Below, one piece after another: positions 1-64,000 of a stretch of 64,000 bases of DNA (position 1 is its first letter; each line of letters opens with the position of its first letter). The translations under genes and the position numbers were made by a program. Source of the DNA: Candidatus Stammera capleta (GTDB lineage: Bacteria > Pseudomonadota > Gammaproteobacteria > Enterobacterales > Enterobacteriaceae); NCBI GenBank assembly GCA_036689545.1, contig CP144853.1, positions 155,027 to 219,026 of the forward strand. Direction: 5' to 3'. Under the pieces are notes generated by a model. The model saw only the letters and a list, made by a program, of their open reading frames with translations. It was not told the DNA's origin and did no database searches.

Positions 1-1024
1 AAAAACAATGAAAAACTTTTTTAAATTTTAAAAATTTTAAAATTTTATTAAAATTAAAATTAATATTATTATTAGTAATTAATAAACTTGTTATTTTATT
101 AATTTTTGTTTCTTTATAGTTTAAATATTTTAATAAATAAGATAAATCATTAAATTTTAATGGATTACGTAAATCTGGTTTATCAGTTCCATAATACATA
201 ATAGCATCATTATATTTAATTTTTTTAAAAGGAAATAATAAATTAATTTTTTTAAATTTCAATCATAAAGAACTTATTAATTTTTCAATCAAAATACTTA
301 TATTTTTAAATGTAGTAAAAGAAATTTCTATATCTAACTGAGTAAACTCTGGTTGTCTATCAGAACGTAAATCTTCATCACGAAAACATTTAACTATTTG
401 GTAATATTTATCTATACCAGAAATCATTAATAATTGTTTAAATAATTGAGGAGATTGAGGTAAAGCATAAAATTTATTATTAAATATTCTACTAGGTACA
501 ATATAATCTCTTGCTCCTTCAGGAGTAGATTTAGTTAAAAAAGGTGTTTCAACTTCAAAAAATTTTTTTTTTTGAAAAAAACTATGTAAAAAATATTTAA
601 CTTTAGAACGTAATTTTAAAATATTTAATACATCTATTGTTCTTAAATTTAAATAACGATATTTATACCTTAATTTTTCATTTGATGTAAAATCAAAAGG
701 TAATGGTTTTGAATAATTAAATATTTTAATCATATTAATACATACTTCAATATCACCATTTTTAATATTTGAATTAATATTTTTTTTCGATCTAAATCGA
801 ACTATACCTGTAATTTTTATACATGATTCTTTTGTTAAAGTTAAAACTAAAGATCATATCCTTTTTTTTTTTTTTTTTAAAAAAGTTTGTATAATTCCTG
901 TTTTATCTCTTAAAGTAATAAAAATAATATTTTTAAATATACGTAAGTTTTGAATTCAACCACAAAGTTTAACTTTATTATTAATATTACTAATATTTAG
1001 TAAACCACAATAATTAGTACGCAT
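1..1024 (-). CDS. aspS: Aspartate--tRNA ligase; the 3' end runs off the window start
   Basis: ATG at 1024. The N-terminus MRTNYCGLLNISNINNKVKLCG-W-IQNL parallels E. coli MRTEYCGQL...LCGWV. Class II core blocks are present: FYALPQSPQLFKQLLM, QIVKCFRDEDLRSDRQPEFTQLDIE, YGTDKPDLRNP. It needs TGA=Trp at 956-958 and 263-265. The T17 run at 862-878 was counted and is in frame (Lys run). Confidence 0.93.
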
Positions 1025-1166
1025 ATATATATATATATTAATAAATTTTTTTTTTAAAAAATTAATATATAGTAAATTATATAAAATATATATTTACATA
1101 TATAATAATTAGTATTATTACAGCTAGTTCTTATTTTAACATATTAAAAATATAATTAATAAAAAT

Positions 1167-2885
1167 ATGAATATTAAAAAAAAAATAGAACATAAAATAT
1201 ATAAAATACTTACATCTATAAATATTAAAAAAAAATATAATTATAAAATATATGATAATGAAAATATTAGTGATTTTCAAATTAATGGATTAATAACAAT
1301 AGCTAAATTAGAAAAAAAAAATGTATATCTTTTAATAAAAAAAATAAAAAAAGAATTAATTAATAATAAACTTTTTAAAAACATAAATATAGTTAAACCT
1401 GGATTTATTAATATTAATTTAAATATAAAAGAAGTTGAAAAAATTATAAATAAATATTCTAAAAAAAAAAATTTTGGTATTAAAAAAAAAAACAAAAAAA
1501 AAAAAATTATTATAGATTATTCATCTCCTAATATTGCTAAAGAAATGCATATAGGTCATTTAAGATCAACCATTATAGGAGATTGTCTCGCAAATATATT
1601 AGAATTTTTAGGACATAATGTGTTAAGAATAAATCATATAGGAGATTGAGGAACTCAATTTGGAATATTAATTGCTTGAATTAAAAAAAAAAAAATAGAA
1701 AATAAAATTAGTAATTTACAAATATTAGAAAAAAATTACATAAAAGCACAAAAAAAATTTTTAAAAAATAAAAAATTTAATAAATTATCCAAAAAATATG
1801 TAGTTAAATTACAAAATAAAGAACATAAAGTATTAAATTTGTGAAAAAAAATAGTTAATTTAACGACAGAACAAAACCAAAAAATATATAATACATTAAA
1901 TGTAAAACTTAATCATAATAATATTATGGGAGAAAGTTTTTATCAAAATATGTTAAATAATATTGTAAATGATTTATTAAAAAAAAAAATAGCTATTTTA
2001 AATAAAAAAGCTATTGTTATTTTTTTTAAAAAAAATAAAAAAAAAATAGTAATTATAATAAAAAAAAAAGATGGTGCATTTTTATATAATACAACTGAAA
2101 TAGCATGCGCTAAATATAGATATGAAGTATTAAAAGCTGATGAAATTATTTATTTAACTGATTTTCGTCAAAAACAACATTTAGAATTAATATTTTCTAT
2201 ACTTTATAAAGCTAAATATATTCCTCAACATATATTATTAAAACATTATTATTTTGGCGTTATATTAGATAAAAATAAAAAACCATTAAAAACTAGAGAA
2301 GGAAATAATGTAAAATTAAAAGATCTTATTAAAAAAGCTAAAAAACATTCTATTAATTTAATAAAAAATAAAAATAATACATATAAACAAGATAAAATTA
2401 AAAAAATAGCTAATAAAATAGCTATAGGTGCTATAAAATACTCAGATCTATCAAAAGATAGAACAAATAATTACTTATTTAATTGAAATAAAATATTATC
2501 TTATAGTGGTAATACTGGACCTTATATACAATATGCTTATACTAGAATAATATCTATTTTAAAAAAAAATAACACTAATATAACAAATGCAATTAAATAT
2601 AATAAATTTATTATTAATAATAATTTAGAATTTTTAATAATAAAAAAAATATTAAATTTTGAAGAAATTATTTTAAAATCTTCTCAAAATGGCACACCTC
2701 ATATAATATGTAATTATTTATATAACATAACTGTTTTATTTTCTAATTTTTATGAAACAAATCATATTAACAATATAAAAAATATAAATTTAAAAAAAAG
2801 TAAAATAAAATTTATTGCTATAATAGCTAAAATAATTAAATTATGTTTAAATTTATTAGGTATACCTATATTAAATAAAATGTAA
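1167..2885 (+). CDS. argS: Arginine--tRNA ligase
   Basis: ATG 1167, TAA 2883-2885. This joins track ORFs 1167-1649 and 1926-2486 plus unlisted pieces, all in one frame. HIGH region [17 protein letters not shown]. The invariant HIGD-W-GTQFG has W=TGA at 1647-1649. C-terminal block [14 protein letters not shown]. Confidence 0.95.
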
Positions 2886-2898
2886 AATTAAATAAAAT

Positions 2899-3726
2899 TT
2901 ATTTTTTTTGAGCTACACTAAAACGATATAAATCATTATAATTTTTATAAGATGATATATTAATATAAGAATATTTTTTATATATATAATTAATTATATT
3001 TTTTTGATCATTAGAGTGTTCAATAATTAATCATCCATGTTTTTTTAAAAAAAAATATGAATTTTTAATTATATGGTAAATATCATTAATACCTTTAAAT
3101 GATTTTAAAGAAATATAAGATTCAAATTTAAGATTATTTGATAATTGATAATTTAAATTAATATATGGAGGATTACTAATAATTAAATTAAATTTTTTTT
3201 TTTTATTTTTAAAATAAGTAAACCAATTACTTTCATAAAAAAAAACGTTTTTTAATCCTAATTTATAAGAATTATATTTAGCTAAATTTATTGCTAAAGG
3301 ATTAATATCTATTCCTACAATTAAAGCATTTATACATTCTTGTGCTAAAGATAGAGATATAACACCTGAACCTGTACCTAAATCTAATATTAAAAACTTT
3401 TTTTTTTTAACCAAATTAATAGTATATTCAACCATAATTTCAGTATCTTGTCTAGGAATAAATATATCAGGATATATTTTAATACTAAAAGATCTAAAAA
3501 AATGTTTCTTTATTACATATGAAAAAGGTTCCCCTTTTAATATTTTAAATAAATAAAAATCTAATTTCTCTAATTCTTGATTTTTAAATTTATAATTATC
3601 AAAAGTAATAATCCAACTATAATCTTTTTTTAAAATATATTTTAATAAAATAAATGCTTCTTTAAAAATAAAAGGATTTTTTTTTTTAAAAAGAGATACT
3701 TTATATAATCATTGTTTTATATTCAT
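2899..3726 (-). CDS. prmC: Release-factor glutamine N5-methyltransferase (HemK/PrmC)
   Basis: ATG 3726, TAA 2899-2901. SAM-binding ILDLGTGSGVISL and catalytic NPPY (IISNPPYIN). It starts 6 nt after the prfA stop, as in the E. coli prfA-prmC pair. TGA=Trp at 3031-3033. Confidence 0.9.
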
Positions 3727-3732: not shown

Positions 3733-4776
3733 TTAATTAAAATAATTAATAATTGGATCAATTAATAAATTTAAATTTCCGTTAAGTATTTCACTTAAAG
3801 AATATATCGTATAATTAATACGATGATCGGTAATTCTATTTTGTGAAAAATTATAAGTACGATTTCTATCACAACGGAATCCTGTTCCTAATAAGATTTT
3901 CTTTTCATAAGATTTTTTTAAATGACGTTTTTCTATTTCTAAAGAATATATTCTTGATTTTAATATCGTTAAAGCTTTAGATTTATTTTTATGTTGAGAT
4001 CTTTCTTGCTGACATTCTACTACTAAACCAGTTGGAATATGAGTTATTCTAACAGCTGAATCAGTAGTATTAACATGTTGACCACCAGATCCTGAAGATT
4101 TAAAAGTATTTATTTTAATATCTTCATTTTTTATAACAGGTAATTTTATTGAAGGTATATCAGGTATAACTGCTACTGTACAAGTAGAAGTATGTACTCT
4201 CCCTTGTGATTCAGTTAAAGGTACACGTTGAACTCTATGTCCACCAGATTCAAACTTTAATTTTCCATAAGCATTTTTACCAATTATTTTAAATGTTATT
4301 TCTTTATATCCTCCATAAGGAGTAGAATTTATATTTATTAATTCTACTTTATAGTGAATACTTTCTGCATATTTAACATACATTTTAAATAAATCTAAAG
4401 CAAATAACGCTGCTTCATGACCTCCGGTACCAGCTTTTATTTCTAAATAAGCATTTAAATTATCTTTTTTATCTTTAAAATGAGATGAAATACTATTTTT
4501 TAATTTATTAAAAGATTCTTTAATTAAATAATTAAGTGTTTTTATTTCTTCTTTAACTAATATAGATAATTCATTATCATTCAATAACAATTGAACATCT
4601 TTTAACTCTTCACAATATGTATTTCAAATGTTAAATAAATTTTTTATTTTAGTTAATTTTGAATATTCTATAAAAACTGACTTTTTTTCTATTTTTTTTT
4701 TTTTTAAAAAAAAATTTTCTATTTTATGTAAACGTTTATCAATTAATAAAATTTTTTTTTTTATTATATTTTTCAT
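3733..4776 (-). CDS. prfA: Peptide chain release factor 1 (UAA/UAG-specific)
   Basis: ATG 4776, TAA 3733-3735, 347 aa. GGQ motif [22 protein letters not shown]1-type P-x-T tripeptide in [23 protein letters not shown] block. In-frame TGA at 4624-4626 aligns with the Trp of E. coli CFTDWQQV. The T14 run at 4692-4705 is in frame. Confidence 0.95.
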
Positions 4777-4934: not shown

Positions 4935-5504
4935 ATGAGTATTAAAATATTAATAGGTATTGGTAATACTGATAAAAAACTTTTGAATACAAGACATAAC
5001 GTAGGAATATGATATATTAAAAAAATTATGACATCAGAAAAAACAATTCAATTTGGTAAAATATATAAAATATTTATTAATAAAAAATTAATATTTATAT
5101 ATATTCCAAATAGTTACATTAATTGTAGTGGAAAATATGTTTATTTCATTAAAAAAAAACTTAATTTAAAAAATAAAGAAATACTTATTATACATGATGA
5201 AATAAATTTAAAACCAGGAAAAGCAAAATTTACAAAAGGAGGTAAATGTACTCATAATGGAATTAAAGATATAATTAAAAATTTAAAAAATAAAAATAAT
5301 TTTTATAGATTAAAAATAGGTATAGGTAATACAAGTATAAAAACAAAACTAAATAAATATGTACTTTCTATACCAACTATAAATGAAAAAAAATTAATAA
5401 TAAAATCTATTAAAAAAGCAATAGAATGTACTAAAATATGAATTTCTGATAATAATTTTATTAAAGCTCAAAATATATTAAATTCATTAAATTTTTATTC
5501 TTAA
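4935..5504 (+). CDS. pth: Peptidyl-tRNA hydrolase
   Basis: ATG 4935, TAA 5502-5504. MSIKILIGIGN, TRHNVGIW, IIHDEINLKPGKAKF and HNGIKDII are colinear with E. coli Pth. TGA=Trp at 5010-5012 and 5439-5441 (E. coli TEMWFTDG). Confidence 0.93.
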
Positions 5505-5617
5505 CTAAAAATAAATTTTATCGTTAATTAATAGATATTAATTAACTTTTATTTTGTTTAATAAAAAAAACATTATTTTTTATATAAAAATAATAAATAA
5601 AATTTTAAACTTCTAAA

Positions 5618-7006
5618 ATGTATAATCTAAATAATATATCTGAAATATTAAATAAATATTCTTTTAAATCTTCTAACATATTAAAAAAACTGAATATTAA
5701 AGTTAACATAGCAGGAAGAATTATATCTAAAAGAATAATGGGAAAAAGTACTTTTCTTAATATACAAGATATAGAAGGTAATATTCAAATTTGAATAAAT
5801 CAAAATATAATTACAAATATATTTTATAAAAAAATAAAAAAAATTAAATTAGGAGATATTATCTATATATCAGGAAAAATATTTAAAACAAAAACTAAAG
5901 TTTTAACTATAAAATGCACATTTTTTAAAATATTAGTTAATATATATAAATATTTACCAGATAAATTTCATAAAATAAAAAATAAAGAAACAAAATTTAG
6001 AAAAAGATATCTAGATTTAATTATTAATAAACAAACAAGAAAAATATTTTTAACTAGAACTAAAATAATAAATTTAATAAAAAAATATTTAAATAAAAAT
6101 AATTATATAGAAATAGAAACACCTATATTACATAATATTCCTGGAGGAGCAATAGCTAAACCCTTTAAAACATACCACAATAAATTTAATTTAAATATGT
6201 ATTTACGTATTTCTCCTGAACTTTATTTAAAACAACTGATTATAGGTGGATTTACTAAAATATATGAATTAAATAAAAGTTTTAGAAACGAAGGAATATC
6301 TTTACAGCATAATCCAGAATTTACAATGATAGAAATTTATAAAGCATACTCAGATTATAAAGATATTATGGTATTAACTGAAAATATTTTTTCATATTTA
6401 ATAAATTCATTATTTAAAATTAAAAAATATATAAAACATAAAAATAAAAAAATATATTTTAATATACCTTTTAAAAAGATAACTATGAAAAAAGCAATTT
6501 TTAAATACTCTAAATTATTTAAAAACATTAAAGATATAGATAATGAATTAATATTAAATAAAATTGCTAAAACACTTAATATAAATACTACTTTATATAA
6601 AGGAAAAATAATTTCTAAAATATTTGAAATAACAACAGAAAAATTTTTAATTCAACCTACATTTATTACCGAATATCCTCTAGATATATCACCATTAGCA
6701 GAAAAAAATAATAAAAAAGAAAATATAGCTAATAGATTTGAATTATTTATAAATGGTTATGAAATAGGTAATGGATTCTCTGAATTAAATAATTATAAAG
6801 AACAAAAAATAAGATTTAAACAACAAATGAATAATAATATTAACAAAAACTTTTTTTATAATAAAGAATATATAAATGCTTTAAAATATGGTTTACCCCC
6901 AACTGGAGGATTAGGTTTGGGAATAGATAGAATAATTATGTTATTAACTAATTCTACCTCTATAAAAGAAGTAATACTTTTTCCTACTTTAAAACAAAAA
7001 AACTAA
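5618..7006 (+). CDS. lysS: Lysine--tRNA ligase (class II)
   Basis: ATG 5618, TAA 7004-7006, 462 aa. OB-fold N-domain (IAGRIISKRIMGKSTFLNIQD). Class II motifs YLRISPELYLKQL, FRNEGISLQHNPEFTMIE and GGLGLGIDRIIMLLT. One TGA=Trp near 5800. No prfB lies upstream (see findings). Confidence 0.95.
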
Positions 7007-7671
7007 AAAACTTTAGATTTTAATAAAATATATTTAATAAATTTTTTTTTAAAAAAAATTTTTAAAATTATTTTTTTTTTAAAATATACATTTTTTTTTA
7101 TATTAAATTGAAATCTAAAATGTTTTGAATAAAAATTAGATAATAAATTATTTTTATTAATATTAAGAAAATTTAAAAAAGTATTTATTTCATATAAAAT
7201 TTTTTTTTTATCTAAATTATTAAATAAAGTTAAAAAAGGATCACCTATTATTTTATATAAAAAAAAAGTATTTCTATTACCTATAATAGGAATCCATAAT
7301 ATTTTACTAATTTTTTTTAATATAATTTTTTTTATATTAAAAATTTTTGAAAAATCTTCGAAATTTATAAATAAAGACATTAAACATACATCATTTAAAG
7401 GTTGATAACACATATCAATAGATATCGTTTTAATTTCAATATTAAAATAAGATATATCACAATATTTTTTTTTTTTGAAATAAAAAACATTAATATATTT
7501 TTCGATAAAACGACCTATTCAACCTTTATCATAAAATGAAAAATATTTTTTTTTAAAAAAGTTAATATTTTTAATTAAAAATAAAATAGAATAACCTGAA
7601 ATTAAATTAGATAAATAATATATATCTTTTTCAGAAATATTTTTTTTAGATAAATTAATATAAAAATTCAT
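7003..7671 (-). CDS. Hypothetical 222-aa protein, possibly a shortened and divergent YgfZ/GcvT-fold (folate-binding) protein
   Basis: ATG 7671, TAG 7003-7005, one in-frame TGA at 7522-7524. There is weak colinear resemblance to E. coli YgfZ residues about 20-235: ISEKDIYYLSNLIS vs ITGADSEKYMQGQVT, FYDKGWIGRF vs HCDAKGKMWSNLRLF, ILWIP vs LLWFE, NVYFKKK vs GISFKKGCY. The KGCYxGQE cysteine and the C-terminal domain are not recognisable. It remains a long open frame in sequence where stops are otherwise frequent. Confidence 0.35.
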
Positions 7672-7914: not shown

Positions 7915-8982
7915 ATGATATTTAAATGTGGAATAATAGGATTACCTAATGTTGGTAAATCAACTTTATTTAATATACTTACTAATAATAATGTAAAAAA
8001 TAAAAATTTTCCTTTTTGTACTATTAAATCAAATATAGGAGAAACTTTCATAAAAGATAATCGTATTTATAAACTTTCTAAAATATTAGAAATTAAAAAT
8101 CTTATTTTCCCAACTATTCAATATATAGATATAGCAGGATTAATTAAAGGAGCTAATAAAGGATTAGGATTAGGAAATAAATTTTTATCTGATATTAAAA
8201 AAGTTCATTTATTAATACATATAATAAGAATATTTAAAGATGAAAAAATAATAAGTTTTTATAAAAATATACATCCTATAAGAGATTTAAATATTATTAA
8301 TAATGAATTAATTCAATCTGATATTAAAACATTAATAAACATTAAAAAAGACAAAATATTTATTGAAAATAAAAAAAAATATTTTCCTTTAATAAATTTT
8401 TGTTTAATAAAATTAAAAAAAAAGAAAATAATTAAAAATTATATTTTTGATAAAAGTCAAATAAAATTTATAAAAACATTAAATTTATTAACTTTAAAAC
8501 CTAAAATATATTTAATTAATATAACAAATTATTCTAATAAAGAAAAAAAAGAAAATATTAAACAAATAAATAGTATTAAAAAATATTTAATTCTTAAAGA
8601 AAAAAAAAAAATTATTTTACCAATAAATATAAAAAAATATGAAGAAAAAAAAATAAAAAATAATAAAAAAAACTATTTTAATAAAATAAATACTATAATT
8701 AAATATAGTTTAATTCTTTTAAAATTAAAAATATTTTTTACAATAAATAATAAAAAAATACAAATTTGATTATTTAAAAAAAATGATATTGCTTTTAATA
8801 TAGCAAAAAAAATTCATACAGATTTTCAAAAAAAATTTATAAAAATTGAAATAATAAAATTTAAACATTATTTAAAATATAAGACATGAGAAAATTTAAA
8901 AAAAAGAGGTAAAATATCTTATAAAGGTAAAAAATATAAAATTAAAGATGGGGATATAATTAAATTTATTATAAATAAATAA
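7915..8982 (+). CDS. ychF: Ribosome-binding ATPase YchF
   Basis: ATG 7915, TAA 8980-8982. P-loop GIIGLPNVGKSTLFN, DIAGLIKGANKGLGLGNKFL, C-terminal TGS-like GKKYKIKDGDII. TGA=Trp at 8767-8769 and about 8887. Confidence 0.9.
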
Positions 8983-9037: not shown

Positions 9038-10480
9038 ATGATATTTAAACAACCAAAATCTTTTTATCTTATTTTTGTATTAGAATTATGAGAAAGATTC
9101 AGTTTTTATGGATTACAAGCAATTATAACAATTTTTTTAGTTAAAAAAATGTGATTATCTGAATCAGATGCAATAACTTTATTTTCTTCTTTTACTGCTA
9201 TTGTTTATGGTTTAGTTTCAGTTGGAGGATGATTAGGAGACAAAATATTAGGAATCAAAAGAACAATGCTATTAGGTATAATTACTCTTACTATTGGTTA
9301 TACACTTATAACTTTATCTTTTTCTAATACAAGAATAATGTATTTAGGATTAGCAACTGTAGCTATAGGTAATTGTTTATTTAAAGCAAATCCAGCTTCT
9401 TTACTTTCTAGATGTTATAAAAATGATCCTAAAATAGATACTGCTTTTACTATGTATTATATGGCAGTTAATATAGGATCTATATTTTCTATGTTATTAA
9501 CACCATGGTTAATGCATAAATTTGGTTGAGAAATAGCTTTTTCTACATCAATAATAGGTTTATTAATCACATTAACAAATTTTCTTTATTTTAAAAAAGT
9601 AATAAAAGATTATGGATCAAAAACAGATTTTATGCCTTTAAACAAAATAAAATTAATAATAGTAATTATAGGAATAATAATTGCTATATTATGTTCAACT
9701 TTTTTATTATATAATCAAAATATAGCTAATAAAATATTAGAAATAATAATCTTTTTTGTTATAATTTATTTCTTAAAAGAAACATTAAAATTAAAAGGAG
9801 ATGTTCAAAAAAAAATGATAGTAACATTTATTTTAATGTTAGAAGCAATTTTATTTTTTGTATTATATAATCAAATGCCTACATCTTTAAATTTTTTCGC
9901 TATTAGAAATGTTAAATCAAATTTTCTAGGATTTAATATTAAACCAGAACAATATCAAGCATTAAATCCTTTTTGAATTATAATATGTAGTCCAATTTTA
10001 GCTAAAATATATGATTATATAGGTGATAAATTAAGTATAGTATATAAATTTGCTATAGGCATGAGTTTATGTTGTATATCATTTTTAATTTTACCATTAG
10101 GAATAAAATTAAATTCTAATATTGAAGGATTAATTTCACCTATTTGATTAATATTAAGTTATTTATTACAAAGTTTAGGTGAATTAATGATTTCAGGTTT
10201 AGGTTTATCTATGGTAGCACAATTAGTGCCTAGAAAATTAACAGGATTTATTATGGGGACATGATTTTTAACAACTTCTATAGCAGCAATAATATCAGGA
10301 TATGTTGCAAATATAATGACTTTTCCTCAAGGAAACTCAATTAGTAAAATATCATCATTAGCAGTATATTATTCAGCATTTCTCAAAATTGGATTATTTA
10401 CAGGATTTATTACTTTAATAATAATAATTATATCACCAAAATTAAATTCTGTTATTAAACCCAAAATAAATAATAAATAA
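9038..10480 (+). CDS. dtpA: Proton-dependent di/tripeptide permease (POT/PTR2 family, DtpA/DtpB-like)
   Basis: ATG 9038, TAA 10478-10480, 480 aa. It joins track ORFs 9266-9529 and 9632-9976 in one frame. POT signatures are present: [86 protein letters not shown]. Several TGA=Trp codons. The A versus B paralogue assignment is uncertain. Confidence 0.85.
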
Positions 10481-10510: not shown

Positions 10511-11464
10511 ATGAACATCATTATATTAATATGTATGCATGGAAATTTATCATTAGAAATAATTAAAACACTAGAATTAATAATAGGAAAACAAAAAAAT
10601 ATATATCCAATAATATTTATTCCAGGAGAAAATACAGATATTTTAGTTAATAAATATAGAAAAATATTAAATAAATTAGAATTAAAAAATAAAATTTTAT
10701 TTTTTACTGATATGTGAGGTGGAACTCCTTTTAATGCAGCAAAAAAAGTTACTGAAAACATTAAAAATAAATATGAAATCATTTGCGGAACTAATATTCC
10801 AATGCTTTTAGAAACTTTAATGTGTAGAGAAGAAATAACAAGTTTTAAAGAGTTAATAATAAAAATACTAGAAAATGGTAAAAAAAATATTAATAATGTT
10901 ATTTATAACATAAATAATTCTAAAAATATTAATAATAACAAAATTAAAAAAGAAAACATAAATTTAAAAAATAAACATATGCAGATAATGTTATCTAGAA
11001 TAGACGATCGATTAATACATGGACAAGTATCAATAGGATGAAGTAAAGAATTAAAAATTTCTAGAATTATAGTAATTAATGATATTATAGCTAATGACCC
11101 TCTTAGAACAAAATTATTAAAACAAGTAGCACCTCCCGGAATCACTTCTCATGTAGTAAGTATAGAAAAATTTATAAAAGTATTTAATAATCCTGAATAT
11201 AAAAATGATAAAGTACTACTTTTATTTAATAATCCTAAAGATATTTTAAAAATTATAAAAAAAGGTATTAAAATTACATCTGTAAATATAGGAGGAATAG
11301 CGTATAAAACAGGAAGAAAACAAATTACAGATGCAATATCTTTAGATAAAGAAGAAATTAATATTTTCTATAAATTAAATAAATTAAATATTGAATTAGA
11401 AGTACGTAAAGTTCCCAATGAAAAAAAAATTAATTTAATAAATTTACTAAATAAAATTAAATAA
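10511..11464 (+). CDS. manX: PTS mannose-family EIIAB component
   Basis: ATG 10511, TAA 11462-11464. IIA phospho-His context IILICMHGNLS. IIB phospho-His context SRIDDRLIHGQVSIGW. TGA=Trp at 10715-10717 and 11039-11041. The Ala/Pro linker of E. coli ManX is replaced by an Asn/Lys-rich linker. Confidence 0.92.
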
Positions 11465-11470
11465 TTAAAT

Positions 11471-12271
11471 ATGAAAATCACATTATTACAAATAGTAATG
11501 ATATTTTTAGTAAGTAGTATAGTAGGTATAGGATCTATTTTAGATTCTTTTCAAACACATAGACCATTAATAGCATGTCCTTTAATAGGATTAATATTAG
11601 GAGATATTAAAAATGGAATAATAATTGGAGGTACATTAGAAATGATTTCTTTAGGGTGAATGAATATTGGAGCAGCAGTATCTCCGGATACTGCATTAGC
11701 ATCAATCATTTCCACAATTTTAGTTGTAGCAGGTAAACAAAGTATAGGTGCAGGAATAGCATTAGCTATACCATTAGCTGCTACAGGACAAATATTAACA
11801 ATCATAGTGCGTAGTATTACTATTATTTTTCAACATTCAGCTGATAAAGTAATAGAAGAAAATAAAAATCTAAATCATATATCTTATTTACATATAGGAG
11901 CATTAATTTTACAAGCTATGAGAATAGCTATCCCAGCTATTATAATAGCTTTTACAGTAAAAACTAAATTAATTCAAAATATTTTAAATTCTATTCCATA
12001 TGTTATTACTAATGGATTAAATATAGCTGGAGGTATTATAGTAATAGTAGGATATGCAATGGTAATAAATATTATGAAAGCTAATTATTTAATGCCATTT
12101 TTTTATTTAGGTTTTGTTATTGCAGGATTTACTAAATTTAATCTAGTATCTTTAGGAATTATAGGAATCATATTATCTATTTTATATATACAATTATCAC
12201 CTAAATATTATATTTTTCCAAAAAAAATAAATAATAATAAAAATAATATAAATGATGATCAATTAGATTAA
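11471..12271 (+). CDS. manY: PTS mannose-family EIIC component
   Basis: ATG 11471, TAA 12269-12271. It is almost colinear with E. coli ManY: FQTHRPLIACPLIGLILGD, GGTLEMISLG-W-MNIGAAVSPDTALASIIST (W=TGA 11657-11659), YAMVINIMKANYLMPFFYLGF. Confidence 0.93.
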
Positions 12272-12275
12272 AAAA

Positions 12276-13103
12276 ATGAATAAAATTAAAATAAATAAAA
12301 AAGATATTAAAAATGTATGTATACGTAGCATGTTTTTACAAGGTTCATGAAATTTTGAAAGAATGCAAGCACTAGGTTTTTGTTTTTCTATTATACCCAT
12401 AATTAAAAAATTATATGTTAATAATATTATTGAAAGAAAAAAAGCTATTAAAAGACATTTAGAATTTTTCAATACACATCCATATATGGTAGCACCTATA
12501 TTAGGTATTATTATAGCAATAGAGGAGAAAAAAGCTAATGGAACAAAAATACATAGTAGTACTATTAATAATATTAAAATAGGTTTAATGGGTCCTTTAG
12601 CAGGTATAGGAGATCCTATCTTTTGAGGCACTATTAGACCTATACTTTCTGCTTTAGGAGCTAGTTTAGCTATTAATGGAAGTATAATAGGTCCAATAAT
12701 TTTTTTTACATTATTTAATTCTATAAGAATATCATTTATATATTATGGTATATATTATGGGTATAAAAAAGGAATAAGTTTAATTAAAAAAATTAAAGAT
12801 AATTTTTTACAAAAAGTGACAGAAAGTTCATCTATTTTAGGATTATTTGTTATGGGAGCTTTAGTTAATAAATGAACTAAAATAAATTTTTCGTTAATTA
12901 TATCTCAAATTAGAGATAAAAATGTTACTAACGTTATTACAATACAAAATATTTTTGATAAAATTTTACCTGGATTAATACCACTTTTATTAACATTATT
13001 ATGTATGAAACTTTTAAGTAAGAAAATAAACCCATTAGTAATAATATCTTTTCTATTTTTAGTTAGTATTATTGGTGGATATATAAATTTAATTTCAGCT
13101 TAA
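12276..13103 (+). CDS. manZ: PTS mannose-family EIID component
   Basis: ATG 12276, TAA 13101-13103. Matching blocks: LQGSWNFERMQALGFCFS, RHLEFFNTHPYMVAPILG, GLMGPLAGIGDPIF-W-GT, ILGLFVMGALVNKW. Several TGA=Trp codons. Confidence 0.93.
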
Positions 13104-51698: not shown

Positions 51699-52622
51699 TT
51701 ACTTTTTATAATATAAATTATAGATTTTTTTTAAAATTAATAATAGTTTTTTATCTAAATTTGATTTTATAGAAAAATATTTTTTTTTTACAGGATGATA
51801 AAATTTAATAAAATTAGAATGTAAAAATAATCTATTAATTTTAATTTTATTAAAAATTTTAAAATTTAAATTTTTATCACCGTAAATATTATCAAATAAA
51901 ATTGGATAACCTAAAAAACTAGTATGTATTCTTATTTGATGATTACGACCTGTAATAGGTTTAATATTTAATAAAGTAAAATTATTAACATATTTTAATA
52001 TCTGAAAATGTGTTTCAGAATACTTTTTTTTCTTTATATTTTTTTTACATAAATAACTTTTAAATATTTTAATATTTAATGGTCAACGTCCACAAACTAA
52101 AGCAATATAATTTTTATATATTTTTTTATTTTTAATATCATCATGTAATTTACACAAAGTAAATTTATTTTTTGACAAAATTAAAATTCCAGAAACATTT
52201 TTATCTAAACGATGAACTAATTCTAAATAATTTCTATTAGAAATTAAATTTCTAAATATATCTAATATATTAATATTTATATTTTTACCACCATGAACAG
52301 ATATACCATAAGGTTTATTTATAACTAATAAATAATCATCTTCATATAAAATATACTTTCTAAAACTAATAATCCTTTCTTTATTTATATAAATTTTATT
52401 TTCATTTATCTTTACTAAAGGTATACGAATTATATCATTAAATTGTAATTTATATTTTGGTAAAATACGTTTTTTATTTACCCTAATATTTCCTTTACGT
52501 AATAAAGAATAAATTTTAGACCTAGACAAAGTTTTTATTTTTTTAAATAAAAAATTATCTATACGTTGATTTAAACTATTAATATCAACTTTTACTAAAT
52601 TAAGAAAAAATTTTTTATTCAT
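51699..52622 (-). CDS. rluC: 23S rRNA pseudouridine synthase RluC
   Basis: ATG 52622, TAA 51699-51701. S4 domain (QRIDNFLFKK), LLVINKPYGISVHGG, catalytic LVHRLDKNVSGILILSK, TGRNHQIRIH, LFLHS. TGA=Trp at 52083-52085. Divergent from rne as in E. coli. Confidence 0.9.
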
Positions 52623-52735: not shown

Positions 52736-54247
52736 ATGAAAAGAATATTAATAAATACAACATATAAAGAAAAATGACGTATTACTTTTATAAAGAACCA
52801 AATATTATACGATTTAAATATAGAAAAAACAAAATATAAAAAAAAAAATTAAATATATATAAAAGTTAAATTACTAAAATAGAATATAGCTTAGAAGCTA
52901 TATTTGTAAACTATGGTTCAAAAAAAAATGGATTACTACCTTTTTAAAAAAAAAAAGATTTTTTAATAAATATTTTTTATGAAAAAAAACATTTTAAATA
53001 TAAAGATATTTTAATACAAACTAATAAAGAAAAAAAAGGAAATAAAAGAGCAATATTAACTACTTTTATTTCTTTATCAGGAAATTATATAATATTATTA
53101 TCTAATAATCCTAATATAAATAGGATATCAAGAAAAATTTAAAATAAAGATAGATGAAATTTAAAAATTAACTTACCTCTTTAAAAATTACCTAACGACA
53201 TGGAAATTATACTCAGAACTACTAGTTTAGGACAATCAATAAAAATATTTAAAATAAATTTACTAATACAATTAAAATATTAAAAATTAATAAAAAAAAA
53301 ATTTAAATTTAAAAAATTACCAAATCTTATTCATAAAGATAAAAATATATTTAAAAAAATACTTAATTACTATTTAACAGAAAAAATTGATGAAATATTA
53401 ATAGATAATTATTAAATATATAAAATGTTAAAAACATACATTAAATATTTTTTTTAAATAAAAAAATTTAAAAAATAAAATTTTTTACAAAAAAAATATC
53501 TTTATTTAATTATTTTAAAATCAAAAAACAAATAGAATTAATTTTTAAAAGAAAAATAAAATTACCTTCTGAAGGTACAATAATTATTGATATTACAGAA
53601 ACTTTAACTTCAATAGATATTAATTCTTCAAAATCTAATAAATATTCAAATATAAAAAATACAGCTTTAAATATAAATTTAAAACAGTAAAATAAATTAC
53701 TACAAACTATGTTTACATAATATAAGTAGATTAATTGTTATAGATTTTATTGATATACTTTCTATAAAAAACAAAAAAAAATAGAAAATAAAATAAAAAA
53801 AATATCAAAAAAAGATATAGTTAAAACTAAAATAAAATATATATCTAAATTTAGTTTATCAATAATGTTAAAACAAAGATTATATCCATCTTTAAAAGAA
53901 TCTGATTATAATTTTTGTTCTAAATGTTAAAGTAATGGTTATATAAAAAATAATAAATTACTTTATTTATCTATATTTAAAAAATAGAAAAAAAATCTAT
54001 AGAAAAAAATATTAAAGAAATACATGTAATAGTAACGACTACTATTAATTAATATCTAATAAAAAAAAAATAAAAAAAAATATTTCCTACTAAAAATAAC
54101 AAAAATAATATTTAAATATTAATTAAACCTAATAAAAATTTTAAAACACCACATCACTCTATATTTAAAATAAGAAACAAAAAAAAGAAAATAAAATTTA
54201 ATTATTTAAATGATAAACTTAAAATAAGTAAAATAAATTTTTTTTAA
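52736..54247 (+). pseudogene. rne: RNase E (rne) pseudogene, catalytic N-terminal half only
   Basis: ATG 52736 gives MKRILINTTYKEKWRITFIKNQILYDLNIE (E. coli [30 protein letters not shown]). Homology then continues for about 500 residues, but only by switching frame at least five times: near 52838-52850, 53470-53480, 53685, 53775 and 54005. It also crosses at least a dozen TAA/TAG codons. Recognisable blocks: NIYKS*ITKIEYSLEAIFVNYG, GNKRAILTTFISLSGNYIILLSNNP, ILRTTSLGQS, DEILIDN, KLPSEGTIIIDITETLTSIDINS, LIVIDFID, ISKFSLSIMLKQR, CSKC*SNG (Zn-link CPRCSGTG), KTPHHSIFKIR. There is no ORF of 60 or more codons in any frame across this 1.5 kb. Confidence 0.9.
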
Positions 54248-54315
54248 AATAAAAAATTTCTTATATAATTAACAAAATTAAATTTTTTTTTAAAAAATAT
54301 TTAATAAATACATTT

Positions 54316-56811
<2,496 letters not shown>

Positions 56812-56859: not shown

Positions 56860-57618
56860 ATGATTAAAAAAAAAAACATAAAAAATAAATATTTTATTAT
56901 TACAGGTAACAATTCTTATAAAAAAGAACTTTATAAAAAAAAAATTAAAAATTTTATTCAAAAATATTATAAAAATATAGATATATTATATTTTTTTATA
57001 AATAAAAAATTTAATATTTTTTTAATACAAAAAAAATTAATAAATCTTAATTTTTTAAATCAAAAACAATTATTTATTATTAATTTTACAGAAAAAATAA
57101 AAAAAATAACTCAAAAGATAATAGAATATATACATATATATCATCAAAATTTTTTTTTTATTTTAAATTTTGAATATAAAACTTCCTTATATGAAGAAAA
57201 TTTACATAAATTCTTTAATGATAGTTTTATTATTAAATTTAATAATATTAAACTTAATTATATTGAAAAAAATAAACATACAAAATACACACAAAAAAAT
57301 TTTCTCAATATTAATAAATACATTAATGATATTAATATTGTTAGTTTTTTTATTTATTTTAAAAAAAAAAATATTAAAAAATGTTTAAATATAATTAGAA
57401 TATTACAAAAAAATAATTTTGAAAAGCTTCTTTTTTTAAATTTAATTTTTAATTACTTAAAAAAATTAAATATAAATAATAAAAATAATACACTTATATT
57501 ATTTAATATATTTAATTTAATAAAAAAATGTGAAACAAAAATTAAAACATATAATAATCCACTATGAAATGATTTAGAAAAAATAATAATATTAGTTATT
57601 AAAAACAATATTTTTTAA
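56860..57618 (+). CDS. holA: DNA polymerase III delta subunit (shortened)
   Basis: ATG 56860, TAA 57616-57618, 252 aa (E. coli 343). It lies directly after leuS. Weak but colinear matches: YFIITGNNSYKKELYKKKIKNFI vs AYLLLGNDPLLLQESQDAVRQVA; FLNQKQLFIINF vs LFASRQTLLLLL; FFIYFKKKNIKKCLNIIRILQKNNFEKLLFLNLI vs WVDALLMGKSKRALHILQQLRLEGSEPVILLRTL; NPL-W-NDLEKI vs QSVWAELEGL. Confidence 0.7.
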
Positions 57619-57691: not shown

Positions 57692-59572
57692 TTAAAAAAT
57701 AAACCTATTTTTTAAATTATTAAATTTAAGATTATTATTTTTTATAGCATATAAAAAAACTTCTTTTACAGCAAAAATAGTTAATTTAAATTTAGCACGA
57801 GTAATAGCTGTATAAATTAGTTCCTTATTTAAAAGATCATTAAAATAATTAGGTAAAATTAATAAAACATGACCAAATTCTGATCCTTGAGATTTATGTA
57901 CAGTAATAGCTCAAGAATATTCTCATTCAGGTAAATTATAAAAATTAACAATTTTATATTTATTTTTTTTTTTTAAAAAACCTATTTTAAAATTATCTAA
58001 TTTATCAGGGATAATAAATCCTAAATCTCCATTAAATAAATTTAATTCATTATTATTTTTAGTAATTAAAATAGGTTCACCAAAATAATAATAATTATTT
58101 TTTTTTTTATAAATTTTTTTTTTTTTTTTAATTAATTTATTTAATAAATATAAATTAATAAATTTATTTAAAAAATTAACTCCAAAATATGTATTTCTTA
58201 ATACACATATCAATTGAAATTTATTAAATGTTTTATTTATGAAATATAAATTATTATAATTATGATTTATTTTGTAAATAAAATTTCAATACCTTTTAGT
58301 ACAAAAATTTAAAAAAAAATTAAAATTTTTTTTTTTTAAATCATAAAAATTAAATTCTTGAATAGATTTTTTTTTTTGTAAAAATTTATCTATTTCCTTA
58401 AAATTACTATTTCTAACATAAAAAGAAAATTTTTTTAATTTTTTTTTTTTACTAAAACGATAATTTTTCTTCAAAAAAGAAACACAATTAATATTTAATT
58501 TATTAATAACATCAAAATTATTTTTTTTTCAAAAAAAATACATTTTATTTATATAAAAACTATTTTTTCTTTTATAATATAAAAAATAATTACAAATTTC
58601 ATTAAATACAGAACCACATTCTATAGAACCTATTTGAAAACTATCACCTACCAAAATAATTTTAGTATCTTCTTTTAAAGAAGATAAAATATTAAACATA
58701 GTTAATACATCTAACATAGAACTTTCATCTATTATTAAAACATTTATATCTAATTTTAAATAATAATTATAATAAATATTATTCTTAAAATAATTATAAC
58801 CTAATAATTTATGTATAGTTATAGCTTTTTCTGGTAATATACTTTTAAATTTATCATTTAAATTTAAACTATTAAAAATTTTTTGTAAAGTATTAGTAAT
58901 ATAAGAAGCAGCTTTACCAGTAGGTGTTACTATTTTAACACAATTACTATTTTTATAATTAAAAAAACTATATAAAACAATAATTAACTTAACTATTAAA
59001 TTAGTTTTACCTGTACCAGCTTCTCCAGATATAATTGATATTCTATTTATAAATACTGACAAAATAGTTAATATCTGATATTTATCAAAAAAAAATTTTT
59101 TAATTTGTTTTTTTATAAAAAAAATATCATTTTTACTTAAAAAAATATTTTTATAATTTTTTTTATTTAAAAAATTTACTACATAATCTTCATATATTCA
59201 ATATTTATGTAAATAAACACAATCATTATATAAAATAAAAGGAGTATCTATATAAGATGTAGGTATACTTAAAATATTAAATTTTAACATAATATTTAAA
59301 CATTTTTTTATAGAAACATCTTTAAAAAAATAATATAAAAAATTTAAAATATTATCATTAAATAATTTTAAATTAAAAATTTTAAATATTGGAAGACAAA
59401 TATGTCCTAATCTATTAGATAAACTAATAATTGAAGCAAATAACATAAAAATTGCTGAATTATTATTTTTACTTTCAAAAACTTTAGAAAAATAAACATC
59501 TAAAGATGACATTTCTTTATTTTTTAAACAATTTAATAAAAAAAAATTAACTTTATTTATTATATAATTCAT
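57692..59572 (-). CDS. recD: Exodeoxyribonuclease V alpha subunit (RecD helicase)
   Basis: ATG 59572, TAA 57692-57694, 626 aa. It joins four track ORFs in one frame. SF1 helicase motifs: ISGEAGTGKT, VTPTGKAA, LIIDESSMLD, LVGDSFQ, ITVHKSQGSEF, IYTAITRAK. Confidence 0.92.
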
Positions 59573-62500
59573 TAATATTTTTTTTTTTAAAAAAAAGCGT
59601 TAAAATTTTTATTAACCTATAATTAGGTTTTGTAAAAAATATTCCAGTACTACTAATATTATTTTTATTAGGATTAATACCTCTTATAAAAATATAATAT
59701 ATTCCTCCAAAATGGATATTATAATTATATTCTGTTAATTTTAATTTTAAATAATTATTTAAAGCTAAACAATAAAATTGATATTGTATATCATATCTAT
59801 TATTACAAATTACTTTTAATAAAGAATTAAAATCATAATTTTTATAATTTAAACCTATTCAATTAGTTTTATAATCAACAATATAATATTTATTTTTATA
59901 AATAAAAATTAAATCTATAACTCCATTTAAAAACCCATATAAATAATTAACATTATCTATATTAATATTAGTACATAATTTAGATACATTATCATATTTT
60001 TTTATAATATAATTAAACCTACTTATATTTAATTTATTATTAATAGGTAAAATAAAACTAAATTCTTTTATAAAAAGAAATATTTTTTTATTTAAAAAAT
60101 TAATAGATATTTTATCTAAATAAACATTAAAAATTTTTAATAAAGTTTTTTTAATAACAAATAATCAATTAATATCAAAATTAAATTCTTTTAACTTATT
60201 TATAATAATTTGTTCATCAAAAGATTTACTAAATTCTATTATTTCCAATAAACTATGAAAGAAATTACCAGTATTTTTTCCACGAGGAAAAAAACTAATT
60301 TTATATTTATTTAAATTAGTATTTAAAAAAAAAATATCATTAAATGATAAACTACTTATTTTTTTTTTTTTTTTATTAATTATATTTGTATAATTATATA
60401 AACTTTTATTTAAAAAATGAAAAAAAAATTTTCTTTTATTTAAAAAAATAATTTTATTATTTATATATTTATCTTTTTTAAATAATTTATTAAAAATTAA
60501 ATTTAAATTATTTATTTTAAAATACTTATATTCAATAAATTTAAATTTTTCTAAAATAGATCTAATTTTAAAAAAATTAAAAAATTTATTTTTATCTATT
60601 AACCGAAATATAGAATTATTACATATATTTGTTTTATTTATATTTAAATTATATAAAAATATATTACATTGATATACAGATCTAGTAATAGCTACATACA
60701 ATAAACGTATTTCCTCAGATAAAAATTCTTTGTTTATTTTAATACCATTTTTATTTTTATTATATAAATCTACTATAAATTTTTTTTTTTTAGAATTCAA
60801 AAAAGTTAAATAATTATATTTATTTTCTAAATTTATTAAAAAAGGTAAAAAAACAATATTATATTGTAACCCTTTAGATTTATGTATTGTAGATATATTA
60901 ATAGAATTTATATTATTATTAAACCTTATATAATATTCACTATTATTATTATTCTTATTTAATATCTGTTCATTTAATCAACTTAATAAAGAATATTTAC
61001 TATTTAATTTTAAAGATATTTTTTGTAATATTTCTGCAATATGTAAAATATTAACTATATATTGTTGATTTTTTTTTAATAATTGTAATTTACTAACTAA
61101 TTTTTCTTTACATAAAATATATTTAATCATAGAATAAATTCCAAATTTAAATCATAATTCACGATAAAAATTAAACTTATTCACTAATAAATTAAAATAT
61201 TTATCATCATTTATGAAATAATTAATTTCATTAAAATGATAACCAAAAATGAAAGTAGATAAAGAACTACGCATATTAATCTTCAATTCAGGATTTAATA
61301 TAGATCTAATAATAAACATTAATTCTTTAGCTTCTAAAGTATGAAAAACATTACTTTTAATATATAAAGAATTTATAGGCAAATTATATTTTTGTAAAAC
61401 ATTAGAAATTAACTCTACTTCTAAATTTGAATAAACTAAAATAGCTATATCAGAAGGCACAATTTTTTTATTTCCTATTTTAGAACATAATTTTTTTTCC
61501 ACCCCTTTTTTATTTAACAAATTTAAAATATAAATAGCACAATATTTAGATATTAATATTTTATAATTACTCAATATACTTATATTTTTACAAACTAAAA
61601 ATCGAATAGCAGGTTGAATTTTGTTATTTTTATAAAAAATATAATATTTACTATTTATACTATAATTAACTGGTAGATATTTTATATCTTTAAATTCAAA
61701 AATATCATTTACTCTACTAAATAAATAATTAATACTTTTTATCATTAAAAATGAAGATCTTCAATTTACATCGAATGTATATAAACATTTAACATTTTTT
61801 CTAGCTTTAATATAATTATTTATATTAGCTCCCCTAAATGAATAAATACATTGTTTTGGATCACCTATAAATATAATAATAGTTTTAAATATGGAGATAT
61901 TTTTAATATAAATATTATTAAATATATTATATTGTAATATATCTGTATCTTGAAATTCATCAATTAAAGCAACTGGAAATATATTTCTAATAGAATTAAG
62001 TAAAAAATCATTTTTTTTTTTAGATAAAAATTTATTTAAATTAACTATTAAATCATTAAAACTTAAATAAGACTTTTTTCTTTTTTCAACTTTTAATAAA
62101 TTTTTAACATAATAAAAACATGAAGTTAATATAAAAACATATAAATCTTTAACTCTATAAAATAAAATATCAATTTTTTTATAAAAACTACTTAAACAAA
62201 AAGTATTAATAGTATTTAAATAATTTAATATATATTTATAACTAAATTTTATTAAACATTTAGGTAAAGTAAAATCTATAGTTTTTTCTAAAGATCAATT
62301 ATTAATATTACGAAATCATATATCTAAATTTTTTTTATTATAAATATATTTATTATTAGTTAATAATAAAATTTCTCTATATATTTTCTCTTTATTTAAA
62401 AACCATTTAATTTTTATAAAATTAATAAAATCTAAAATTTTATTATAACAATCTATAATAGATTTAAATTTTTTTTTATATTGAAAACTAAAAGTTAATA

Positions 62501-63098
62501 AATTAAAAAAAGATTTTATTACTTTAAATAAACATTCAGGATCAGCTCAATATGTAATAATAATTCTACCTATATTAATAGGTAAAATATCAAGATATTT
62601 TTTTCAAAAAAGAAAAACAAATTTATAAATAAATTCATTTTCTGAATCTAAAATTTTATAATAATAATTTATATTAGTTTCAAAAAAATTTGTAAAAAGT
62701 ATCCTTTTACAAAAACTATGTATAGTAAAAATAGATAATGTATCTATTTGATATTCAAATCTTGTTAATAAATTAATTATATTTTTTTTTTTTTTAATAA
62801 AATTAAATATATCTTCTATTTCAGAACTAATACAATAACCTTTTATAAATGATAAACGTAAATTCCTTATGTTAATTAATATTCTTTCTTTAATTTCTAA
62901 AATAGCTAAATCAGTAAAAGTTACAACTAATATTTTATCTAAACTTAAAGAAATAAAATATTTTTCAATATTAATATTTAATAAAAATCTAATATATAAT
63001 AAAGAAATTAAATGAGTTTTTCCAGTACCTGCAGATGATTCTATTAAATTACTTTTATTAAGTTTAATAGTAAATGGATTTTTAATATAATTAAACAT
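59553..63098 (-). CDS. recB: Exodeoxyribonuclease V beta subunit (RecB helicase-nuclease)
   Basis: ATG 63098, 1181 aa (E. coli 1180). ESSAGTGKTH, VVTFTDLA, LIDEFQDTD, FIGDPKQCIYSFRGA, STIHKSKGLQYNIVFLP, LLYVAITRS, C-terminal nuclease GVIDLIFIYKNKYYIVDYKTN-W. Codon-by-codon counting through the T11 run at 59578-59588 places the stop at TAA 59553-59555, a 20-nt overlap with recD. Confidence 0.92.
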
Positions 63099-63117
63099 TT
63101 AATTATTCTATAAATTT

Positions 63118-64000
63118 TTATCTCTTATTTTTTTTTTCTTAAAAAATTTAAAATAGGTAATAACCATAATTTAGCTTTATTTATTAAAAAATTTAAATTA
63201 ATATTATAATTATAATTATTTCTTAAAAAAGAAATATAAATATTATTTACTTCTCCAACAAAATATAAATTACCATATAATATATTATATAACTTTTTTT
63301 TAATTATTTTAAATAAATAATTACTTTTTTTAGATTTATAAAAATTTAAAATTAAATAATTACTAAATTGAGGTAAAAAAAATAAAGGATTTTTAATACC
63401 TTTTAAATAACCAGATAAATAATATCTTAAATAAAATAATGCATCATTTTTTGATAAAATATGATAATACCATATATTATCATAACCATAGATATAACTA
63501 TTCTTATTTCCACCTAAATAACAATAAATTAAATGATCAAAAAAAAATATTAAAGCATCAATTAAATTTAATTTTTTTGGTAAAAATTTAACTAACCTAT
63601 TATCTTTATTAAATAATAACAGACCACTAATATCTCATTTATTAATTAAAATATTAAATTTATAAAATTTAAGATTAATAAAATTAAACTCTATATTTTT
63701 AAGAAATTTTAAAAATTTTTCTTTTTCCTCTAATCAAATTAACCTACCAATTAATTTAAAAGAAAAAAAACTAGAAAAATATGAATAACATACTCAATTT
63801 AGATTAATATAATTATTAAATATAAACTTAGACATTAACTCTAATCTAGCTAAATAAAATTCTTTCCAATTTGTATTAAAAATATTCTGTTTTAAAAATA
63901 ACTTTTCATTTAAATATAAATTAATTTTTAAATACTTTAAAAAAAAAAAGTTTATAGGATTAAACCAAAAAAATTTAAAATTATTAAAAAAAATATTTTT
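63118..64000 (-). CDS. recC: Exodeoxyribonuclease V gamma subunit (RecC), C-terminal part only; the 5' end is outside the window
   Basis: TAA 63118-63120, 19 nt before the recB ATG. The C-terminal region FDHLIYCYLGGNKNSYIYG...ALFYLRYYLSGYLKGIKNPL parallels E. coli LWLEHLVYCASGGNGESRLF...ALHYLSQLIEGYREGMSAPL. The reading frame upstream was not checked codon by codon. Confidence 0.8.

Follow-up and report, generated by a model that had tools for sequence, protein, structure and literature searches.

The 64,000-nt stretch of DNA analysed here (hereafter the window; 16.3% G+C) is best explained as part of the chromosome of a member of the Candidatus Stammera clade in which UGA is read as tryptophan (Trp), and we give this reading as a whole a probability of about 0.9. 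Its firmest part concerns the code itself, as the alignments described below make it almost certain that UGA serves as an ordinary Trp codon in this genome. The window contains 54 protein genes, four tRNAs and one frameshifted rne, and at gathering thresholds Rfam detected only the tRNAs. When TGA is treated as a sense codon, stop-to-stop open reading frames (ORFs) extend to 1182, 853, 837 and 822 codons; the longest under table 11 has 489 codons, and a control in which TAG was set as sense left ORF lengths unaltered. A simple gene call under table 4 yielded 51 ORFs of at least 70 amino acids, which make up 90% of the window and hold 131 in-frame TGA and 18 TGG codons. After addition of rpmH, rnpA and rpmF and extension of sufD to a TTG start, the 54 protein genes contain 133 TGA and 18 TGG codons; TGA thus accounts for about 88% of the Trp codons and occurs in frame in 44 genes (81%). 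The fused ORFs align across their TGA codons to NCBIfam equivalogs over the full length, as exemplified by ArgRS (TIGR00456, positions 1-569 of 569), and LysS, DtpA, ManXYZ, PykF, SufB/C/S, RecD and others likewise match from end to end.

The residue that TGA stands for was determined by aligning the window proteins to their orthologues from E. coli K-12, for which 15 genome stretches were retrieved. E. coli has Trp opposite 99 of 121 aligned TGA codons (82%, in 42 genes), whereas Trp makes up 1.17% of all 16,292 aligned columns (binomial p ~3e-168). The proportion of TGA codons facing another residue (22 of 121) resembles that of the TGG codons, 12 of 15 of which are aligned with Trp. Within LeuRS, 19 of the 21 TGA codons occupy Trp-majority columns, defined as those with Trp in 50% or more of 84 non-clade homologues; the remaining two lie in Phe/Tyr columns, and all 22 Trp-majority columns are occupied by TGA or TGG in the window gene. 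Reassignment of UGA to another amino acid is not without precedent, since UGA-to-Gly (table 25) is known from Gracilibacteria and Absconditabacteria (PMC8629427). However, Gly was found opposite only two of the 121 aligned TGA codons and Cys opposite none, and the residue profile is that of TGG; the E. coli alignment excludes the glycine and selenocysteine readings, and the probability left for any of the three alternatives, cysteine included, is negligible.

One could also argue that the TGA codons are true stops in a decaying genome rich in pseudogenes, whose long ORFs are relics; pseudogenes do occur in reduced symbionts, and rne is frameshifted in the window. Yet TGA is the only stop triplet that interrupts the genes (TAA and TAG never do), the match to orthologues carries on in frame past every TGA, TGA codons sit on conserved Trp positions at the frequency given above, and the essential genes leuS, gyrB and argS would all have to be dead. 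Pseudogene decay is excluded by the LeuRS columns together with the E. coli residue alignment, and we consider it vanishingly improbable.

The use of stop codons is in line with UGA being a Trp codon. The 50 complete large ORFs terminate in TAA (47) or TAG (3) and the small genes in TAA, so that none of the 54 genes in the window ends in TGA. For comparison, six of 42 E. coli orthologues terminate in TGA, and with similar usage the chance of finding none among 54 genes would be ~2e-4. In addition, no window gene carries a TGA in a C-terminal tail beyond the alignment with its orthologue; hence no gene looks as if it were meant to stop at TGA.

Most of these points had been anticipated by the original prediction. 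All eight TGA positions that it cited are in frame, on the strand and in the peptide context that it gave; its figure of about 44 of 54 genes needing TGA as a sense codon proved to be exact; and for leuS, for which it had named more than 20 such codons, we counted 21 TGA beside three TGG. It was also right in placing the TGA codons on Trp positions of E. coli orthologues, in its statement that genes end in TAA or TAG and never in TGA, in expecting that calling genes under table 4 would fuse the fragments into full-length orthologues, and in noting that TGG is still used for Trp (one of the 18 TGG codons is in dnaA). The adjacent pair of TGA codons that it reported in yidC (33405-33410, codons 54-55) is present in frame; this part of the protein is not alignable to E. 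coli YidC, and only frame continuity backs the Trp reading there.

Placement among Stammera genomes

Several lines of evidence make it very probable that the window genome is a Stammera. The window LeuRS matches an NCBI protein encoded on a contig of 325,578 bp at 100% identity; the next ~35 matches (55-61% identity) are encoded on contigs of 212-314 kb, followed by Buchnera and Sodalis-like symbionts at ~50%. LysS, scanned against the GTDB species representatives, hit CP144833.1, 'Candidatus Stammera capleta', at 61% identity. In a neighbour-joining tree of LeuRS, a single gene, the window protein forms a deep branch inside the Stammera clade, with 55-62% identity to the members of the clade (clade range 51-89%) as opposed to no more than 52% to outgroups. 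Some 40 of the 51 window ORFs match CP144833.1 in the same order and orientation and are collinear with its 144.7-202.9 kb region, and the order aspS-argS-prmC-prfA-pth-(prfB)-lysS-mutH-ychF-dtpA-manXYZ-gyrA is common to the window and GCA_036689315.1. The tRNA-Asn is 97% identical to that of Salmonella and Citrobacter, and the initiator tRNA-Met 87% identical to E. coli metZ. The original prediction, which had pointed to near-E. coli tRNAs and to a position in or near the Enterobacterales, agrees with these results, the nearest named relatives being Candidatus Stammera capleta and then Buchnera and Sodalis-like symbionts.

Stammera belong to the Enterobacteriaceae and are extracellular symbionts, with reduced genomes, of Cassidinae leaf beetles. 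Their chromosomes measure 0.21-0.34 Mb at 14-20% G+C (10.1101/2023.12.12.571295, Table S2), a range that includes both the 325,578 bp of the contig and the G+C content of the window. Pectinase genes are mostly plasmid-borne in Stammera (10.1101/2023.12.12.571295), and no pectinase (polygalacturonase) gene was found in the 64-kb window. Whether this lineage had been described was left open by the original prediction; it is already described, and UGA-to-Trp has been known for Stammera since 2017. The reassignment is attributed to Salem et al. 2017 by the papers that cite that work (PMC8629427, PMC10540940, 10.1101/2023.12.12.571295), the Codetta screen includes Stammera among the known bacterial reassignments (PMC8629427), and 50 Stammera genomes have been annotated under genetic code 4 (Garcia-Lozano et al., 10.1101/2023.12.12.571295). 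In a comparison with Hodgkinia, Nasuia and Zinderia, Stammera was listed as having no prfB, a tRNA-Trp gene (trnW) with the anticodon CCA, and UGA in 62% of its genes (PMC10540940). On UGA-to-Trp in Stammera as such, our analysis offers no new information.

The window genome shares with Stammera the LeuRS clade, gene order, a size of ~0.33 Mb, ~16% G+C, TGA for most Trp residues, and TAA and TAG as the only stops. What sets it apart is its separate deep branch, with no more than 62% LeuRS identity to any member, and a size near the top of the range. The window genes dtpA (9038-10480), pyrG (21118-22770), folC (23447-24736), pntB/pntA (38397-41321) and nadE (48566-49354) have no counterpart in the Charidotella zona strain, and rimM (26649-27155), dnaA (31282-32583) and bamD (36145-36930) have only weak, non-syntenic matches there, so that strain probably lacks these three as well; dtpA is present in GCA_036689315.1. 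The retained genes fit a place of the window genome among the larger, less reduced Stammera.

Two observations concern the relatives themselves. CP144833.1 carries the GenBank title 'plasmid pStChz2', yet the record is a chromosome, that of the symbiont of Charidotella zona, and spans 297,036 bp with 288 ORFs, 29 tRNAs and a tmRNA; because of this title it is stored in PLSDB as a non-mobilizable, annotation-free 'plasmid', and a search of PLSDB with the window brought up this relative only. In GCA_036689315.1, lysS is split into two adjacent ORFs of 289 and 172 amino acids (L035:9061-10459), which suggests that this essential gene holds an internal TAA or TAG stop or a frameshift.

Genes and individual loci of the window

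The features of the window are as follows (positions, strand, gene and number of in-frame TGA codons; a dot in place of the strand marks rows for which no single strand is given).

2-1024, minus: aspS, N-terminal 340 codons, running off the window (NCBIfam match; 3 TGA, two of them facing E. coli Trp)
1167-2885, plus: argS (TIGR00456; 4 TGA, all four facing Trp; TAA stop)
2899-3726, minus: prmC, for the methyltransferase that modifies the release-factor GGQ glutamine (2 TGA, 2 TGG)
3733-4776, minus: prfA, for release factor 1 (RF1), which reads UAA and UAG (PxT-type tripeptide PLT and GGQ; 1 TGA)
4935-5504, plus: pth (2 TGA, both facing E. coli Trp)
5505-5617, dot: AT-rich spacer of 113 bp between pth and lysS, the site of prfB in collinear Stammera
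5618-7006, plus: lysS (1 TGA)
7003-7671, minus: mutH, divergent (1 TGA; TAG stop)
7915-8982, plus: ychF (2 TGA)
9038-10480, plus: dtpA (7 TGA, six facing Trp)
10511-13103, plus: manX, manY and manZ, mannose phosphotransferase system (2, 1 and 3 TGA, all facing Trp)
13352-15853, plus: gyrA (1 TGA; E. coli alignment)
15884-17299, minus: pykF (no TGA, no TGG)
17340-17413, minus: tRNA-Val(GAC)
17598-18872, plus: tyrS (5 TGA, all facing Trp)
19004-22770, minus: fpr (3 TGA), eno (1) and pyrG (2)
22866-22940, plus: initiator tRNA-Met(CAU)
22964-27399, minus: cvpA, folC, truA, rplS, trmD, rimM and rpsP (2, 3, 3, 1, 2, 0 and 1 TGA)
27431-27683: tRNA-Ser(GGA) (minus) and tRNA-Asn(GUU) (plus)
27688-32583, minus: gyrB (7 TGA), dnaN (0) and dnaA (0 TGA, 1 TGG)
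32735-36135, plus: rpmH, rnpA (1 TGA), yidC (7 TGA including the adjacent pair) and mnmE (1)
36145-42435, dot: bamD, rluD, ruvX, pntB, pntA and ldhA (1, 2, 2, 2, 1 and 0 TGA)
42446-47310, plus: sufB, sufC, sufD, sufS and sufE (5, 1, 1, 4 and 1 TGA)
47335-52622, dot: pta-like N-terminal ORF, nadE, murJ (4 TGA, TAG stop), acpP, rpmF and rluC (1 TGA)
52736-54329, plus: rne, catalytic half of RNase E, in three reading frames
54316-56811, plus: leuS (21 TGA, 3 TGG)
56860-57618, plus: ORF of 252 amino acids at the lptE/holA position (1 TGA)
57692-64000, minus: recD (5 TGA), recB (9 TGA, all facing Trp) and recC, C-terminal 291 codons (3 TGA, 4 TGG)

Four of these loci deserve comment. Compared with its intact orthologue of 577 amino acids in CP144833.1, rne runs through three successive frames (52736-52879, 52840-53505 and 53457-54329, plus strand); the first shift is at a run of eleven A at ~52848-52858, and the second lies amid runs of T8, A7, A6, T6 and A8. 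The gene could be a pseudogene, or the shifts could stem from errors in the assembly of homopolymers; alternatively, slippage on poly(A) tracts could restore the frame, a form of rescue that has been proposed in other symbionts rich in AT. The frame of sufD is open from 44654 to 45670 (plus strand) with a likely TTG start at 44663, and as there is no ATG before codon 247, gene callers restricted to ATG return a fragment of 92 amino acids. A truncated sufD pseudogene was considered and rejected, as the frame is open from 44654 and aligns to the SufD of a relative over the full length. The ORF at 47335-48462 (minus strand; 375 codons, open) shows a weak match to the N-terminal part of Pta alone (E = 1.4e-11, profile positions 4-289 of 708) and, being without the catalytic C-terminal domain, could be what is left of a truncated gene whose frame has stayed open. 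The ORF downstream of leuS (56860-57618, plus strand) has no NCBIfam match, is only 36% identical to the corresponding Stammera protein, and probably represents a rapidly diverging holA or lptE.

Release factor 2 and the tRNA that reads UGA

RF1 and PrmC are intact in the window, and prfA is its only release-factor gene. Searches of the window by tblastn with release factor 2 (RF2) from E. coli and from Stammera recovered prfA only, and the spacer between pth and lysS (5505-5617) contains no remnant of RF2. In two collinear Stammera genomes prfB is located exactly between pth and lysS (CP144833.1, L001:8920-9996; GCA_036689315.1, L035:8001-9071), and in E. coli it is found directly upstream of lysS in the prfB-lysS operon. 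Since these relatives and E. coli have the gene there and the window searches found prfA alone, the comparison of gene order indicates that prfB has been deleted from its ancestral pth-prfB-lysS slot.

For the remainder of the genome, we searched the protein collection with Stammera RF2 and considered the best 120 hits. RF2 from 13 Stammera-sized contigs is among them. The 325,578-bp contig contributes none, even though the collection does contain its LeuRS and ProRS. Taken with the empty slot, this makes it likely that RF2 is absent from the whole genome. In the literature Stammera is given as using code 4 with a CCA tRNA-Trp, and most of its genomes have no prfB (PMC10540940, table 2; PMC8629427, table 1; PMC13092985; 10.64898/2026.05.24.727570), and the window with its empty pth-lysS slot resembles this majority. 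Five genomes at the base of Stammera follow the standard code and retain prfB, which also occurs in some table 4 Stammera assemblies (preprint 10.64898/2026.05.24.727570).

The prfB genes of the two recoded relatives are open ORFs under table 4 with SPF and GGQ motifs and themselves contain in-frame UGA at conserved Trp positions, namely at codons 148 and 306 in CP144833.1 and at codon 304 in GCA_036689315.1; the UGA at the Trp of the 'WGNQ' motif is common to both. Within the Charidotella-type group, RF2 proteins are 75-81% identical, compared with 70-84% for ProRS, and this degree of conservation suggests that RF2 is still under selection in these bacteria. The original prediction had linked the reassignment of UGA to the loss of RF2. 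For the window genome this link is upheld as far as prfB is gone from the pth-lysS slot and from the window, but it does not hold throughout the clade, as two recoded relatives have retained the gene.

It is conceivable that RF2 is encoded elsewhere in the window genome and that UGA is ambiguous or leaky, meaning Trp mostly and stop occasionally. Such a leaky state has been proposed for strain PSAC of Providencia siddallii and would be compatible with the prfB-keeping Stammera relatives, whose RF2 gene carries SPF and GGQ motifs and one or two in-frame UGA; in the Charidotella-type group RF2 is as conserved as ProRS. Against this stand the loss of prfB from the syntenic slot of a genus whose chromosomes are reported to be highly syntenic (10.1101/2023.12.12.571295), the lack of any RF2 of the 325,578-bp contig within the best 120 hits, and the fact that no window gene terminates in TGA, and we regard a leaky UGA as improbable.

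Under the preferred reading, i.e. UGA as a regular Trp codon in a genome from which RF2 has been lost, no RF2 would compete for UGA and the codon would be decoded by the single tRNA-Trp of the genome. A tRNA-Trp with the anticodon CCA would read UGA by tolerating a C34-A mispair at the third position of the codon, possibly assisted by the tRNA body, i.e. by A24 in the D-stem and, as in recoded relatives, a weakened anticodon stem. Termination relies on UAA and UAG only, both of which can be read by the encoded RF1 with PrmC, and strong AT mutational pressure (16% G+C) may then have turned most TGG codons into TGA.

The tRNA-Trp gene is not among the four tRNAs of the 64-kb window. The complete chromosome CP144833.1 encodes 29 tRNAs, including one tRNA-Trp with the anticodon CCA and none with UCA, and a single tRNA-Trp(CCA) is located at the same site, next to tRNA-Ile(GAU), in four further Stammera genomes (the five genes are at L026:32311-32385, L031:5271-5343, L032:5316-5386, L033:5308-5381 and L034:5262-5336). 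Since CCA is found in all five relatives, a near-cognate tRNA-Trp(CCA) freed from competition by RF2 is the likeliest decoder in the window genome, and by this analogy we favour it with some confidence. The expectation of a tRNA-Trp with the anticodon UCA, voiced in the original prediction, thus probably fails here, judging from the relatives.

A cognate tRNA-Trp(UCA) encoded outside the window, as in Mycoplasmatales, Hodgkinia and Nasuia, would be the commonest solution among table 4 organisms (PMC10540940, table 2; PMC13092985), and the window lineage, in which trnW lies outside the stretch analysed, is deep-branching, with 55-62% LeuRS identity to its relatives. However, all five Stammera genomes, three of them recoded, have one tRNA-Trp(CCA) at a conserved site, and tRNA-Trp(UCA) has been found in no Stammera genome (gTranslate preprint 10.64898/2026.05.24.727570), which renders this solution rather unlikely, slightly more so than a leaky UGA. 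The original prediction had also held that an intact prfB together with a tRNA-Trp(CCA) only would refute the reassignment. CP144833.1 has exactly this combination together with 645 in-frame TGA codons; as it is recoded nonetheless, the combination is no valid argument against recoding in this clade.

The anticodon stems of these tRNAs differ. They contain a G30-U40 wobble in CP144833.1, a U27-U43 mismatch plus a G30-U40 wobble in GCA_036689315.1, and a G27-A43 mismatch in GCA_036689535.1, whereas those of two standard-code Stammera consist of five Watson-Crick pairs. All five genes have U11-A24, the state of the Hirsh UGA suppressor of E. coli. A24 was rejected as a feature that tells recoded from standard-code genomes, since both of the latter have it and it is reportedly common in bacteria.

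Several points weigh against the picture drawn here. In two recoded relatives prfB persists and is apparently under constraint, so that loss of RF2 is no precondition for recoding in this clade. GCA_036689245.1 (312,597 bp), a table 11 genome for which prfB is expected, is also missing among the best 120 hits, and absence from these hits is thus not proof of RF2 loss. The occurrence of A24 in standard-code Stammera means that A24 alone cannot explain the reading of UGA. Finally, the evidence is at the level of sequence, and it covers 64 kb of a genome of about 326 kb.

Possible stages of recoding and other table 4 systems

The use of TGA and TGG differs widely among Stammera genomes. For the first four relatives below, TGA:TGG ratios come from one shared syntenic stretch of 22 kb around leuS.

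GCA_036689245.1, standard code: TGA:TGG 0:70; no prfB in the regions read
GCA_036689325.1, standard code: 0:67, plus three TGA stops; RF2 protein from its contig in the collection
GCA_036689315.1, early table 4: 14:44; prfB present with one in-frame TGA
GCA_036689535.1: 78:9; its contig yielded no RF2 within the best 120 hits
CP144833.1, whole genome: 645:97; prfB present with two in-frame TGA
Window, whole: 133:18; prfB absent from the pth-lysS slot

ORFs cover 92% of CP144833.1 under table 4 compared with 56% under table 11, and the gene order around leuS, lysS and proS-trnW is common to the standard-code and early table 4 genomes of the window's clade. One might see in Stammera a natural graded series of a single codon reassignment with the window genome at its finished end, in which the decoder is a CCA tRNA with a variously weakened anticodon stem and never a UCA tRNA; we put this forward as a tentative and rather doubtful proposal. 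The series would lead from the standard code with prfB to genomes with few UGA-Trp codons that keep prfB, then to genomes that use mostly UGA and whose prfB itself carries UGA, and finally to the deletion of prfB.

The altered stems resemble the short-anticodon-stem mechanism described for Blastocrithidia and Zinderia, although PMC13092985, where this mechanism is discussed, lists Stammera with a 5-bp stem. The weakening of the stem together with recoding, seen in a comparison of two genomes against three, is only a lead. Should the window lineage and the tortoise-beetle clade have been recoded separately, or should the trnW of the window genome be changed in this way, Stammera would provide a within-genus bacterial test of this mechanism. 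A neighbour-joining tree of concatenated SufS, LeuRS, RecD and RecB (2,469 columns, six Stammera lineages) is a star with bootstraps below 50%.

Among other table 4 bacteria, Candidatus Providencia siddallii PSAC, a leech symbiont, likewise belongs to the Enterobacterales and reads UGA as Trp with a CCA tRNA-Trp (PMC10540940). PSAC has UGA in ~20% of its genes, keeps a prfB with UGA inside, and may still stop at UGA in some genes (PMC10540940), whereas the window has UGA in 81% of its genes, shows no UGA stops and has lost prfB from its slot. Hodgkinia cicadicola, Nasuia deltocephalinicola, Zinderia insecticola and the Mycoplasmatales also combine UGA-to-Trp with loss of RF2 and reduced genomes, but they belong to other classes or phyla than the window. 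Hodgkinia, Nasuia and most Mycoplasmatales have a tRNA-Trp(UCA) (PMC10540940; PMC13092985), while Zinderia has a CCA tRNA-Trp with a 4-bp anticodon stem (PMC10540940; PMC13092985).

In practical terms, table 11 would fragment the window and most of its genes would be miscalled as pseudogenes, and annotation of this DNA needs table 4. With tRNA-Trp(UCA) never present and prfB persisting in recoded genomes, the usual hallmarks of this reassignment are unreliable in Stammera, and it is codon-by-codon alignment alone that settles the code.

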